Below are positions 26,324 to 32,619 of a DNA stretch of 64,000 nt, piece by piece. Origin of the DNA: a phage. Within the stretch, counting starts at the first letter, position 1. Every line of letters starts with the position of its first letter. The stretch lies in the sequence record PZ179880.1; one strand, 5' to 3'. A program made the position numbers and the translations under genes. A model generated the notes under the pieces. That model saw only the letters and a list, made by a program, of their open reading frames with translations, was not told where the DNA came from and did no database searches.

Positions 26324-27439
26324 ATGGAAAAATTTATGGCAGAGTTTGGACAAGGATATGTCCAAACGCCATTTTTATCGGAAAGCAATTCAGTAAGATA
26401 TAAAATAAGCATAGCGGGCTCTTGCCCGCTTTCTACTGCAGGGCCATATGTTAAATTTCAGGATAATCCCGTTGGAAATCAAACATTTAGTGCAGGTCTT
26501 CATTTAAGAGTTTTTGACCCTTCTACGGGAGCATTAGTTGATAGTAAGTCATATGCTTTTTCTGCTTCAAACAATACAACATCTGCCGCTTTTGTCAGTT
26601 TTATGAATTCTTTGTCAAACAATAGACTTGTTGCTATATTAACTAGCGGAAAGGTTAATTTTCCTCCTGAAGTGGTATCTTGGTTAAGGGGAGCAGGAAC
26701 TTCAGTTTTTCCATCAGATTCAGTATTGTCAAGATTTGACGTATCATATGCTGCTTTTTATACTTCTTCTAAAAGAGCTATTGCATTAGAGCATGTTAAA
26801 CTAAGTAATAGAAAAAGCACAGATGATTATCAAACTATTTTAGATGTTGTATTTGATAGTTTAGAAGACGTCGGAGCTACGGGATTTCCTAAAAGAACAT
26901 ATGAAAGTGTCGAGCAATTTATGTCAGCGGTTGGTGGAACTAACAACGAAATTGCGCGATTGCCAACTTCAGCTGCTATAAGTAAACTATCTGATTATAA
27001 TTTAATTCCTGGTGATGTTCTTTATCTTAAAGCACAGTTATATGCTGATGCTGATTTACTTGATCTTGGAACTACAAATATATCTATCCGTTTTTATAAT
27101 GCATCAAATGGATATATTTCTTCAACACAGGCTGAGTTTACTGGGCAAGCTGGGTCATGGGAATTAAAGGAAGATTATGTAGTTGTTCCTGAAAATGCAG
27201 TCGGATTTACTATATATGCGCAGAGAACTGCTCAAGCTGGTCAAGGCGGAATGAGGAATTTAAGCTTTTCTGAAGTATCAAGAAATGGCGGCATTTCAAA
27301 ACCTGCCGAATTTGGCGTCAACGGTATTCGTGTTAATTATGTCTGTGAATCGGCTTCACCTCCAGATATAATGGTACTTCCTACACAAGCCTCTTCTAAA
27401 ACTGGCAAAGTGTTTGGGCAAGAATTTAGAGAAGTTTAA
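26324..27439 (+). CDS. 35: long tail fibre hinge/connector gp35
   Basis: 371 aa; follows gene 34 by 8 nt; terminator downstream. Confidence 0.9.
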   Translation: MEKFMAEFGQGYVQTPFLSESNSVRYKISIAGSCPLSTAGPYVKFQDNPVGNQTFSAGLHLRVFDPSTGALVDSKSYAFSASNNTTSAAFVSFMNSLSNNRLVAILTSGKVNFPPEVVSWLRGAGTSVFPSDSVLSRFDVSYAAFYTSSKRAIALEHVKLSNRKSTDDYQTILDVVFDSLEDVGATGFPKRTYESVEQFMSAVGGTNNEIARLPTSAAISKLSDYNLIPGDVLYLKAQLYADADLLDLGTTNISIRFYNASNGYISSTQAEFTGQAGSWELKEDYVVVPENAVGFTIYAQRTAQAGQGGMRNLSFSEVSRNGGISKPAEFGVNGIRVNYVCESASPPDIMVLPTQASSKTGKVFGQEFREV

Positions 27440-28160: not shown

Positions 28161-31112
28161 ATGGCTACTTTAAAACAAATACAATTTAAAAGAAGCAAAA
28201 CCGCAGGTCAACTTCCTGCTGCTTCAGTATTAGCCGAAGGTGAATTGGCTATTAATTTAAAAGATAAAACAATTTTCACAAAAGATGACTCAGGCAATGT
28301 TATAGAATTAGGTTTAAAATATGGAGGAACAATTGATGGTTCTTTAACTGTTAATGGAAATATAATTGGAAATTTAACAGGTAACGCTGCAACTGCAACG
28401 AAATTAAAAACAGCACGAAAAATTAATGGTATATCCTTTGATGGGTCAAAAGATATCACGCTAACTCCATCTGACATAAATGTCAATAGCACAACATTTA
28501 TAAAAAATAACGGCGAATTACCTGTTGATGCTAATTTAGATGAGTACGGGCCTGTTGAAGAATATCTTGGAGTTTGGTCGAAAGCAACTTCAACCAACGC
28601 TCAACCAGCAAATAAATTTCCAGAAGAAAATGCTGTAGGTGTGCTAGAAGTATTTGTAGCCGGTCAATTTGCTGGTACTCAGAGATATACAACTAGATAC
28701 GGAAATGTTTATATTCGTTCCTTGACTGCTACATGGAACGGAGTAAATGGTCCGTGGAGTGTGTGGCGAAATATTCAATCCGGTACTCGTCCACTGTCAA
28801 CAACAATTGATCTTAATGATCTAGGAGGCGCTGAACACTTTGGTTTGTGGCGAAATAGTTCAAATTCCATTGCTACCTTTGACAGAAATTTCCCAGAAGA
28901 GGGGTCGTCAGCTAAAGGTCTTTTGGAAGTATATGAAGGGGGAAGCTATTCTCGTACACAAAGATATACAACCATGTTTGGTGTTGTTTATACTCGCTGT
29001 CTTACTGCTGCGTGGGATGCTTCTGCGCCTAAATGGGGACCGTGGCAACAAGTCGGTAATGTCACACCAGCGACTTTTTATGATGGAGATCTGAATGATT
29101 TTAAAACTCCTGGGTTATATAATATTTTAGGCACTGATGCCGTTATTAATTGTCCTACAGGCGAAGGTTTACCAGCCGTTATTGTTGGTTTGCTGGAAGT
29201 TAAACAGCGTGCTTCTGGCGGTGCTATTTTCCAAAAATTTACTACTGCCGGAACAGGTGCAACTACTCGCGATCGTATTTTTGAGCGTGCATATACTGGT
29301 GGTGCGTGGGGTGCATGGAACGAAGTATATACATCTTATTCTCTGCCAATTACTTTGGGTATGGGTGGCATTAAAGCTCAATTAGCGGAGTTAGATTGGC
29401 AAACCTTTGATTTTGTCCCTGGTAGTATGTTTAGCGTTCCTTTGAATAAAATAAAGAACATGCCAGCAAATATGAATTGGGGGACGATTGATGGAAACTT
29501 GGTTATGTTTTCTGTCGGTCCTAGCGAGCATACTGGCACAGGGCGTACTGTTCAGGTTTGGCGTGGTACTGTATCCCAGACAAACTACCGTTATTTTGTC
29601 GTTCGTGTATTCGGTAATTCAGGAAATAGAACTTGCACAGTTCGTCGTGTTGTTCTTGAAGACGGATCACATACTTGGACTGCTCAACAAAACTTTAGAG
29701 GATTGTTGAATATCACTGCTGTTGTTAATCTTGGCGCTAATCAGAAAATTTCACTTGCTCCAGGAGCATATATTCAAGCCCCTGCTAGCGGTTCTGGTTC
29801 TAATACTTACGCAAATCAGAATACTACTATTGCGCCATTATATCAGGCCATTGACGATTCAAATAAAAACCAGTTTGCTCCTATTGTAAAACAGAAAAAC
29901 ACTGTAACAAATATTACTATGGCTTCTGGTATGGATATTGCTAGTTCAGAATATCGTATCATTGCTCAAGGTGATTTATCCGCTACTGGAACTACAGCTA
30001 ATGAATTAGCTACATGGCGTTTCTTGCCGTCTGGCCGATTCATGTCACAAAGCCGAGTTTATGCTGGCGCAGCATTCTTGAACACTGATGGTAACATTGC
30101 TGGTTCAATCTGGAAGAAATACAACAATGCAACCAACTTAGACGCTGCTTTGAATACTCGCGTAGGTAAAAGCGGTGATACGATGACAGGTCGGTTAACA
30201 ATCAATGCACCTAATGATGTTATTGTATTATCAACAACTGCTAGTAATTCTTTGTATATTCGCGGTGATATAGACGGGACTGGTAACTGGTATATTGGTA
30301 GGGGTGGTGGTGATGATAATGGATTAGCGTTCCATAGTTATGCTAATAATGCTGGTGTATACATTACAAACAATGGTGAGATTGCGTTAAACCCGCAAAA
30401 TACCGCAATGGTTAACGTTAACCGTGACCGTGTACGCATTAACGGTTCTGGATGGATTGCTAGACAACCGGGTGATTGGGGCAACCAATGGCGAGTAGAA
30501 GCTCCATTATTCGTTGATCATGGTTATGTTTCACCGGATTGTTATTATCCAATTATTAAAGGAAGAAGTGTAATCACCAATCAAGGATATAGCACCGCTG
30601 TTGACTTTGGTATGCGTCGTATTCCATCACAGTGGGGGCAAGCAATCATTCGTGTCGGATCCACGGAGGCTTCTCCTGATGCTGGACACCCACAAGCTGT
30701 GTTTGAATTCCATCATGATGGATTCTTTTATACACCAGGAAATGGTAGCTTTAGCGATGTGTATATTCGTTCTGACTCCCGTCTCAAGATTAATAAAGAA
30801 GAATTAGAATATGGAGCAGTCGAAAAAGTTTGCCGACTGAAAGTTTATATTTACGATAAAGTTAAGTCTATTAAAGACCGTAGTGTTATTAAACGTGAAG
30901 TTGGTATTATTGCTCAGGACCTTGAAAAGGAATTACCGGAAGCTGTATCTAAGGTTGAAGTTGATGGATCTGATGTTCTGACAATTTCTAACTCTGCTGT
31001 GAATGCTCTTTTAATTAAGGCTATTCAGGAAATGAATGAAGAAATTAAAGAATTGAAAACGCCTCTCTTTACTAAAATTGCTCGCAAAATTAGTAAATAT
31101 TTTAAATTCTAA
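28161..31112 (+). CDS. 37: long tail fibre distal subunit gp37 with C-terminal intramolecular-chaperone (S74-like) domain
   Basis: 983 aa; three internal ~60-aa repeats; C-terminus SDSRLKINKEELEY... typical of auto-cleaving chaperone domains. Confidence 0.9.
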   Translation: MATLKQIQFKRSKTAGQLPAASVLAEGELAINLKDKTIFTKDDSGNVIELGLKYGGTIDGSLTVNGNIIGNLTGNAATATKLKTARKINGISFDGSKDITLTPSDINVNSTTFIKNNGELPVDANLDEYGPVEEYLGVWSKATSTNAQPANKFPEENAVGVLEVFVAGQFAGTQRYTTRYGNVYIRSLTATWNGVNGPWSVWRNIQSGTRPLSTTIDLNDLGGAEHFGLWRNSSNSIATFDRNFPEEGSSAKGLLEVYEGGSYSRTQRYTTMFGVVYTRCLTAAWDASAPKWGPWQQVGNVTPATFYDGDLNDFKTPGLYNILGTDAVINCPTGEGLPAVIVGLLEVKQRASGGAIFQKFTTAGTGATTRDRIFERAYTGGAWGAWNEVYTSYSLPITLGMGGIKAQLAELDWQTFDFVPGSMFSVPLNKIKNMPANMNWGTIDGNLVMFSVGPSEHTGTGRTVQVWRGTVSQTNYRYFVVRVFGNSGNRTCTVRRVVLEDGSHTWTAQQNFRGLLNITAVVNLGANQKISLAPGAYIQAPASGSGSNTYANQNTTIAPLYQAIDDSNKNQFAPIVKQKNTVTNITMASGMDIASSEYRIIAQGDLSATGTTANELATWRFLPSGRFMSQSRVYAGAAFLNTDGNIAGSIWKKYNNATNLDAALNTRVGKSGDTMTGRLTINAPNDVIVLSTTASNSLYIRGDIDGTGNWYIGRGGGDDNGLAFHSYANNAGVYITNNGEIALNPQNTAMVNVNRDRVRINGSGWIARQPGDWGNQWRVEAPLFVDHGYVSPDCYYPIIKGRSVITNQGYSTAVDFGMRRIPSQWGQAIIRVGSTEASPDAGHPQAVFEFHHDGFFYTPGNGSFSDVYIRSDSRLKINKEELEYGAVEKVCRLKVYIYDKVKSIKDRSVIKREVGIIAQDLEKELPEAVSKVEVDGSDVLTISNSAVNALLIKAIQEMNEEIKELKTPLFTKIARKISKYFKF

Positions 31113-31116
31113 CAGC

Positions 31117-31137
31117 AAGGGGGAAATTTCCCCCTTT
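31117..31137 (+). terminator. stem-loop downstream of gene 37 (weak terminator)
   Basis: GGGGGAAAUUUCCCCC palindrome followed by UUUGG. Confidence 0.4.
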
Positions 31138-31149
31138 GGAGTATAAATT

Positions 31150-31932
31150 ATGGCAGTAGTTGGAGTTCCTGGCTGGATTGGAAGTTCAGCCGTAAATGAA
31201 ACGGGACAGCGCTGGATGAGTCAAGCGGCTGGTCAATTAAGATTGGGTGTTCCTTGCTGGATGAGTCAATTTGCAGGTCGCTCACGAGAAATTATTCACA
31301 CGCTTGGAGCAGACCATAACTTCAATGGTCAATGGTTCCGAGATAGATGTTTTGAGGCAGGTAGTGCACCTATAGTGTTTAATATCACTGGAGATTTAGT
31401 ATCATATTCTAAAGATGTTCCTTTATTCTTCATGTACGGAGATACACCGAATGAATATGTTCAGTTGAACATACATGGTGTAACGATGTATGGCCGTGGC
31501 GGGAATGGCGGTAGCAATAGTCCTGGCTCAGCTGGGGGTCATTGTATTCAAAATGATATTGGTGGGAGACTAAGAATTAATAATGGCGGAGCTATTGCTG
31601 GCGGCGGTGGCGGTGGCGGCGGCGGGTATTATTCTCCTTTTTCACAAATGAGATTGACCTTTGGCGGTGGCGGCGGTCGTCCGTTTGGCGCACCGGGCGG
31701 ATCTATTGATATGCAATCAGGAGCAACTGCTGGTACTATTTCTTCGCCAGGCGCAGGGTCTGTGAACGGTATCTACAACGGCGGGTCTGGTGGTGAAGTT
31801 GGCTCCGCAGGAGGTAGATGTAATATTCGTGGTCAAGGATATGAATACGATGGCGGAGCTGCTGGTTATGCCGTCATAGGGTCTACACCGACATGGCAAA
31901 ACGTTGGAGCAATATATGGTCCAAGAGTATAA
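31150..31932 (+). CDS. 38: T2-type tail-fibre adhesin gp38 (glycine-rich motifs)
   Basis: 260 aa; poly-Gly blocks [10 protein letters not shown] and [13 protein letters not shown] separated by variable segments. Confidence 0.85.
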
Positions 31933-31962: not shown

Positions 31963-32619
31963 ATGGCAGCACCTAGAATATCATTTTCGCCCTCTGATAT
32001 TCTGTTTGGTGTTCTAGATCGCTTGTTCAAAGATAATGCTACCGGGAAAGTTCTTGCTTCCCGGGTAGCTGTCGTAATTCTTTTGTTTATAATGGCGATT
32101 GTTTGGTATAGGGGAGATAGTTTCTTTGAGTACTATAAGCAATCAAAGTATGAAACATACAGTGAAATTATTGAAAAGGAAAGAAATGCACGCTTTGAAT
32201 CTGTCGCCCTGGAACAACTCCAGATAGTTCATATATCATCTGAGGCAGACTTTAGTGCGGTGTATTCTTTCCGCCCTAAAAACTTAAACTATTTTGTTGA
32301 TATTATAGCATATGAAGGAAAATTACCTTCAACAATAAGCGAAAAATCACTTGGAGGATATCCTGTTGATAAAACTATGGATGAATATACAGTTCATTTA
32401 AATGGACGTCATTATTATTCCGACTCAAAATTTGCTTTTTTACCAACTAAAAAGCCTACTCCCGAAATAAATTACATGTACAGTTGTCCATATTTCAATT
32501 TGGATAATATCTATGCTGGAACAATAACCATGTACTGGTATAGAAATGATCATATAAGTAATGACCGCCTTGAATCAATATGTTCTCAGGCGGCCAGAAT
32601 ATTAGGAAGGGCTAAATAA
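31963..32619 (+). CDS. t: holin T
   Basis: 218 aa; single N-terminal TM (VAVVILLFIMAIVW) plus large periplasmic domain. Confidence 0.9.
   Translation: MAAPRISFSPSDILFGVLDRLFKDNATGKVLASRVAVVILLFIMAIVWYRGDSFFEYYKQSKYETYSEIIEKERNARFESVALEQLQIVHISSEADFSAVYSFRPKNLNYFVDIIAYEGKLPSTISEKSLGGYPVDKTMDEYTVHLNGRHYYSDSKFAFLPTKKPTPEINYMYSCPYFNLDNIYAGTITMYWYRNDHISNDRLESICSQAARILGRAK

Follow-up and report, generated by a model that had tools for sequence, protein, structure and literature searches.

The stretch of phage DNA analyzed here (sequence record PZ179880.1; 64,000 nucleotides, hereafter the window) contains a gene 38, which raises the question of what its product does. [quoted passage not shown] The gene is located as follows.

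31150–31932, + strand: gene 38, stop codon included, encoding a 260-residue receptor-recognizing adhesin that we assign to the T6/RB3 subtype.

The 260 codons of gene 38 form a single intact open reading frame that begins with ATG and ends at a TAA stop; a GGAG sequence lies 8 nt 5′ of the ATG. Its G+C content is 48% and reaches 53.5% over positions 31490–31870, compared with a window mean of 35%. Glycine accounts for 62 of the 260 residues (24%) and for 49 of the 146 residues between positions 115 and 260 (34%); the preferred glycine codon is GGC in the poly-Gly tracts of gene 38 (9 of 14) and GGT in gp37 (51 of 100). An identical protein is present in public assemblies, and the protein is a member of a 155-member 90% cluster that also contains the gp38 proteins of RB5, WilhelmHis, and fPS-65.

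The protein matches the Pfam families Gp38_N (PF21721; 74 bits, residues 1–42) and GP38 (PF05268; 240 bits, residues 47–260, profile positions 1–218 of 218), as well as PHROG 2056, “tail fiber protein; host specificity” (E = 6e-113, profile positions 1–267 of 267). Sequence matches to solved structures were obtained with PDB entry 9V85 (E = 1.6e-80), in which the receptor-binding domain of PP01 gp38 is fused to sfGFP (PMC12892980), and with chain D of 6F45 (6F45_D; E = 6.5e-49), which is S16 gp38 within the gp37–gp38 tip complex. An AlphaFold2 (AF2) model generated with 62 homologues as input had a mean pLDDT of 89.5 and a pTM of 0.80. When this model was searched against the PDB with Foldseek, 9V85 (TM 0.87, rmsd 2.2 Å, E = 3e-26) and 6F45_D (E = 2e-22) were the only entries under E = 1. 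The fold, which is predicted and not solved, is a β-helix combined with a polyglycine-II sandwich.

Three parts of gene 38 are needed to describe this architecture.

31150–31284, + strand: N-terminal attachment domain, residues 1–45 (Pfam Gp38_N, 1–42), containing W9, W22, and W37.
31492–31866, + strand: specificity region, residues 115–239, in which Gly-rich motifs alternate with variable segments 122–128, 160–171, 185–210, and 223–234, as seen in an entropy profile.
31600–31626, + strand: central poly-Gly tract of nine Gly, read as GGC GGC GGT GGC GGT GGC GGC GGC GGG (from TRF and the codons).

The AF2 model has helices at residues 10–18 and 23–29 of the N-terminus, and the three Trp are conserved in 100% (W9), 98% (W22), and 89% (W37) of the 62 homologues. 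In the S16 structure, the three corresponding Trp are lodged in pockets of the gp37 trimer, the Gly motifs form polyglycine-II helices stacked as a sandwich of three layers, and the variable loops lie at its distal end (PMC6851490). The nine-Gly run of the window protein aligns with S16 polyglycine-II helix 3 (151-GGGGGGGG-158). In the 62 homologues, the Gly motifs are near-invariant, with mean column entropies of 0–0.4 bits for GRGGNGG, GG129–130, the poly-Gly, and GGGGGRPFG, whereas the four variable segments have mean column entropies of 1.6–2.3 bits. The alternation is a trait of the family and not a product of chance composition; a GRM/HVS scheme has been described for the gp38 specificity region (PMC3157838). 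The sequence-only reading of this locus had quoted three poly-Gly blocks, had described them as separated by short variable segments, and had held that these segments define receptor specificity. All three blocks are present (residues 151–161, being G151–G159 followed by YY; 172–184; and 210–222), but the first contains nine Gly and not the eight of the quoted string. The separation by variable segments is borne out by the entropy contrast, and their role in specificity has been published for close relatives (PMC3157838; bioRxiv 10.64898/2026.04.02.716166).

The genes and signals around gene 38 are given below.

28161–31112, + strand: gene 37, encoding the 983-residue distal half-fiber subunit, with Pfam matches to Peptidase_S74 (residues 871–929) and gp37_trimer.
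31117–31136, + strand: probable GC-rich intercistronic hairpin of genes 37 and 38, a perfect 10+10 palindrome (AAGGGGGAAA/TTTCCCCCTT) just 5′ of the ribosome-binding site.
31963–32619, + strand: gene t (holin; Pfam Phage_holin_T, 393 bits), the conserved downstream neighbor.

The gene order 37–38–t is the same in T6, T2, T4, and all relatives fetched, and the surrounding 24 kb is ~95–96% identical to several Tequatrovirus genomes. The start of gene 38 follows the gp37 stop by 38 nt. At residues 866–877, gp37 carries the motif DVYIR↓SDSRLKI (DVYIRSDSRLKI); in the fPS phages and S16, autocleavage at this motif has been proposed to expose the docking surface for gp38 (PMC7917993). Self-cleavage of the window gp37 is predicted after R870 and would release a 113-residue intramolecular chaperone encoded by positions 30771–31109. 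The tip that precedes this motif (30690–30770, residues ~845–870) matches the tips of T6 and PYps14T and is completely different in LF73P3, ZN18, and RB9, despite gp38 proteins that are 98–99.6% identical to that of the window. Since gp37 tips differ between near-identical gp38 proteins, the 37/38 boundary is itself a recombination junction.

The palindrome probably forms an intercistronic mRNA hairpin, and its stem is preserved by compensatory changes in 15 relatives (GGGGG/CCCCC, GGGGC/GCCCC, and GAGGGC/GCCCTC, with a TTCG loop in some). The sequence TATAAATT just 5′ of the gene 38 ATG resembles a T4 late promoter and was rejected as a candidate, being not conserved in T6 or RB9; scans for sigma-70 promoters and terminators returned nothing exceeding shuffled expectation. 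Further upstream, gp35 (hinge connector, 26324–27439) has a match over the gathering score to the Pfam ILEI (interleukin-like EMT inducer) domain at residues 58–112 (E = 8e-8).

At the DNA level, the Gly blocks had been read from the sequence as GGC/GGT repeat tracts (about 31600–31680) that could promote slippage or recombination. The description of the tracts holds: TRF detects (GGC)n at 31600–31625 (8.7 copies, 82% matches), a second GGN tract is found at 31663–31677, and a repeat search returned the following pair.

31608–31676, + strand: exact 15-nt direct repeat TGGCGGTGGCGGCGG, with copies at 31608–31622 and 31662–31676 that flank variable segment 160–171 (31627–31662).

The second part of the claim agrees with natural variants and with mosaic breakpoints at Gly motifs in relatives. 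We compared the gene 38 region of the window with that of 15 relatives. Two relatives, LYE-01 and G2540-3, stay near-identical to the window as far as 31625 or 31601, positions within the poly-Gly tract or at its end; their variable segments are divergent, and the match to the window resumes at 31858 within DGGAAG. In fFiEco06, near-identity ends at ~31450, ~40 nt 5′ of GRM1 (31492–31512), and the sequence differs from there to the gene end. HY01 has only 31294–31448 in common with the window. In BMB16, a foreign N-terminal domain extends to 31293, after which the sequence is that of the window. This is the pattern of recombination between conserved motifs for which PMC3157838 cites Tetart, Trojet, and Krisch.

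Rearrangements within the specificity region were also found. ZN18 (1501–2334 of the compared segment) has a 51-nt tandem duplication of segment 160–171 plus GGGGG, the junction of which is a hybrid of both Gly tracts. PYps47T has an independent 54-nt duplication of segment 160–171 plus Gly, with a six-Gly junction and in a different allelic background. Both junctions fall in the 15-nt repeats, and, to judge from these two alleles, duplication of loop 160–171 arose independently at least twice. In PYps14T (1501–2292 of the compared segment), the central run contains 12 Gly instead of nine, through a (GGCGGCGGT) expansion. The two duplications and this expansion correspond to window 31600–31677. 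In the PYps paper, PYps15T and PYps32T have the expansion too; the differences are described there as insertions only.

Several other records depart from the canonical gene. RB33 (KM607001; gene 38 at 2001–2831 of the compared segment) lacks one nucleotide at the first Gly motif (AGAG-GTGG), and the reading frame of HP3 gene 38 is shifted inside the poly-Gly tract. Both genes are annotated as truncated, and both frameshifts are likely to be sequencing errors in G-rich tracts. In P0034 (303 residues, from an E. coli assembly), gp38 residues 1–156, up to the poly-Gly, are fused to a gp37 C-terminal segment with DVYIRSDRRLKI and the intramolecular chaperone domain; this chimera arose either as an artifact of assembly or by recombination at the Gly tract. 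P0022, P0023, and P0027, from metagenome and Logan assemblies, encode gp38 lacking the poly-Gly tract and the adjacent variable segment. They might be taken for reciprocal deletions between the GGN repeats, but, being short-read assemblies of uncertain authenticity that show a type of deletion inviable in T6, they were set aside and are not relied on.

The relatives that bear on the receptor are listed below, with amino acid identities to the window gp38.

LF73P3 gp38: 99.6% identity.
RB9 gp38 (the same gene as in RB3/5/6/7/10): 98.1% identity, 5 substitutions; RB5 and the T6-like group use Tsx (PMC3157838).
fPS-65 gp38: 97.3% identity; LPS inner-core heptose requirement on Yersinia (PMC7917993).
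WilhelmHis (Bas35) gp38: 95% identity, 13 substitutions; tsx dependence, fully complemented (PMC8594841).
T6 gp38: 93% identity, 18 substitutions; Tsx (PMC8594841).
T2 gp38: 53% identity; FadL (PMC8594841).

The locus had initially been labeled T2-type, which is right as to the family; the nearest prototypes, however, are T6, RB3, and RB5 (93–98% amino acid identity) and not T2, which makes Tsx a likelier receptor than FadL, OmpF, or OmpA. We aligned the segments between the Gly motifs with those of adhesins with known receptors. Segments 122–128 and 160–171 are identical in the window, RB9, and WilhelmHis; compared with the latter two, segment 185–210 differs at two to three positions and segment 223–234 at one to two. 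The substitutions relative to RB9, with the window residue first, are A14S, S199A, N210S, S213G, and Y231S. Tsx is used by the T6-like adhesins of RB3/5/6/7/14/27 (PMC3157838), and adhesins that bind Tsx have a common set of variable segments (Trojet et al.). CM8, the gene 38 of which is among the T6-type matches (92.9% nucleotide identity to the ZN18 gene), was assigned Tsx/HepI in RB-TnSeq screens (bioRxiv 10.64898/2026.04.02.716166). Because the variable loops are identical or near-identical to those of T6, RB5, and WilhelmHis, the receptor is most likely Tsx, the nucleoside channel of the E. coli outer membrane. No receptor evidence was found for LF73P3. For ZN18, which is the closest of the Yersinia phages with Y231, a literature search on the receptor returned nothing relevant, and the receptors of Paracelsus and KarlGJung were not found in the text of the BASEL paper, which gives them in figures.

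Other readings of gene 38 have to be weighed against that of a fiber-tip adhesin with structural Gly tracts. The name that it has in common with T4 gene 38, its location between genes 37 and t, and the label “distal long tail fiber assembly catalyst” on several database records of homologues would all suit a nonstructural gp37 assembly chaperone that is absent from the virion. BLASTP against T4 gp38, however, gave E = 2.0 with 5 of 12 residues identical, which rules out a T4-type chaperone at the sequence level and upholds the earlier view that the protein is of the T2/K3/Ox2 type. The full-length Pfam adhesin matches and the solved adhesin homologues point the same way, the predicted self-cleaving chaperone domain at the end of the window gp37 is consistent with the T2/S16 fiber design, and the note in the T4 record itself describes T2-subfamily gp38 as unrelated. 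We consider a chaperone role to be next to impossible and put the probability that the product of gene 38 is a T2/T6/S16-type gp38 adhesin capping the long tail fiber at roughly 0.85, its place in the virion being deduced from its sequence. Within an adhesin, the GGN tracts could still form a dedicated hypermutable contingency locus at which replication slippage changes the host range at high frequency. The trinucleotide array, the natural length variants (12 Gly in PYps14T and the duplications in ZN18 and PYps47T), and the records of HP3 and RB33 that are frameshifted in or at the tracts would fit such a locus, but its probability is very low. The codons are mixed (GGC, GGT, and GGG), the longest perfect run is (GGC)3, and the length is strongly conserved: among 120 cluster representatives, the central run has nine Gly in 53 and eight in 38, that is, eight or nine in 91, and the genes of E. 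coli and Shigella phages among the 60 best matches are all 783 nt long with one exception of 780 nt. (A gapped-pattern scan of IMG/VR across the poly-Gly tract matched two contigs, each with a 27-nt tract, which are too few for length statistics.) As to the frameshifted records, the gene is full length in HP3.1, and that of RB33 has been reported to be functional (PMC3157838). Polyglycine-II helices explain the Gly runs structurally (PMC6851490), and in T6 none of the deletions that remove a variable or Gly motif is viable (Trojet et al.). An impure tract that is so conserved in length is mainly structural and not a contingency locus; slippage must be rare, and rearrangement at the GGN tracts is occasional and not a high-frequency switch.

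A fiber-tip adhesin with a primary receptor other than Tsx (OmpA, OmpF, OmpW, FadL, or an LPS core sugar) or with PST-like dual specificity is a more serious alternative, albeit an unlikely one. Four residues in the loop region (Y231, S199, N210, and S213) differ from the Tsx-verified RB9 allele, and position 231, in the fourth variable segment (223–234), is Ser in all three Tsx-verified relatives, RB5, WilhelmHis, and T6. Single-residue receptor switches are documented within the gp38 family, as in RB51/RB68, where the loop substitution Q206L changes the receptor from OmpF to OmpW (bioRxiv 10.64898/2026.04.02.716166). PST gp38 differs from that of T6 at three residues and gains OmpA/Yersinia recognition (PMC3157838; Trojet et al.). 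Moreover, Yersinia pseudotuberculosis has no Tsx (PMC3157838), yet near-identical adhesins occur in Yersinia phages, and fPS-65, 97% identical to the window, has been assigned only the LPS inner-core requirement (PMC7917993). On the other hand, the window protein retains the T6 residues at the three PST positions (Q166, M167, and G207, corresponding to T6 Q167, M168, and G208), two of its four variable segments are identical to those of RB5 and WilhelmHis with the other two only one to three residues off, and closely related gp38 proteins have a common receptor in published phylogenies. Taken together, Y231 and the documented single-substitution switches leave Tsx short of certainty, and we regard it as the likely receptor. 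It follows that the phage probably needs Tsx and that tsx-deficient hosts should resist it.

The absence of Tsx from Yersinia pseudotuberculosis is of interest with regard to the rearranged alleles. Both loop duplications and the 12-Gly expansion come from phages isolated on this species, and the 60 best matches include no E. coli or Shigella phage with any of these changes. PST, too, has changed residues in the loop formed by segment 160–171. These observations suggest, without proving it, that loop duplication is a recurrent host-range adaptation. The window allele is canonical and unduplicated and carries the 15-nt repeat pair that would be the substrate. We tentatively propose, as a possibility that is less probable than not by a wide measure, that the GGN repeats are a built-in recombination substrate for duplicating loop 160–171 and thereby provide Tsx-type phages with a recurrent route to Tsx-less Yersinia. 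If this were true, loop duplication would parallel the duplications in T4 gp37 that opened Yersinia as a host; duplications of the latter kind were reportedly selected on Yersinia by Tetart et al. (1996).

In the mechanism that we envisage, gp37 would trimerize, after which its C-terminal 113-residue chaperone domain would be cut off at DVYIR↓SD, and the three-helix N-terminal domain of gp38 would insert its three Trp (W9, W22, and W37) into the tip of gp37 thus exposed. The remainder of gp38 would form a small β-helix, with the Gly-rich stretches projecting as a polyglycine-II “sandwich,” and the variable segments, as loops linking the polyglycine helices, would contact the outer-membrane protein, most likely Tsx. 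The conserved GGN-coded motifs would act as short patches of DNA identity at which homologous or unequal recombination could occasionally swap, duplicate, or delete variable segments.

The sequence-only reading was thus real and correctly interpreted, and it can be refined to a T6/RB3-type gp38 adhesin that is probably specific for Tsx. Being near-identical to adhesins shown to bind Tsx, and 99.6% identical to a deposited phage protein, the gene 38 product represents already known biology: this is an ordinary host-range gene of a described type, all of the biology of which has been published. Our understanding of gp38 gains nothing from the window, given genetics since 1987, a structure since 2018, and large receptor screens in 2021–2026. 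What the sequence does provide is a host-range call, namely, a T6-type phage that probably requires Tsx, which is useful for the design of phage cocktails. The one point that goes slightly beyond the literature consulted is that, in Yersinia-isolated relatives, loops have repeatedly been duplicated and Gly runs expanded at the GGN repeats.

Among the known systems, T4 is the most distant, as its gp38 (183 residues) is unrelated in sequence and has only the gene name and map position in common with the window protein. T4 gp38 is not part of the virion, and the T4 gp37 tip itself binds the receptor (PMC6851490). PP01 gp38 (9V85) has the same fold as the window protein, with 68% identity over 220 columns and a near-identical β-helix at residues 47–115, but its four variable segments and its N-terminal attachment domain are unlike those of the window, and its receptor is OmpC (PMC12892980). 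The structural prototype, S16 gp38 (6F45), is built like the window protein, from three domains with Trp prongs, a poly-Gly helix at the center, and ten Gly motifs, whereas its identity is 43%, its receptor is Salmonella OmpC, and the tip sequence of its gp37 is different. The gp38 proteins of T2, K3, Ox2, and M1 belong to the same family and have the same segmented Gly-motif architecture. The variable segments of T2 gp38 differ from those of the window, with FadL/OmpF specificity; M1 gp38 is 80% identical to the window protein overall, but the segment after its poly-Gly is YWNASITRYRYRYVV, unlike segment 160–171 of the window. M1, K3, and Ox2 gp38 are specific for OmpA. The gp38 proteins of T6, RB3/RB5/RB9, and WilhelmHis are like the window protein in length (260–261 residues), domain order, and locus, and all fall in the 155-member 90% cluster. 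The proteins of T6, RB9, and WilhelmHis have Ser in place of Y231, which, like S199 (Ala in RB9), lies within a variable segment.
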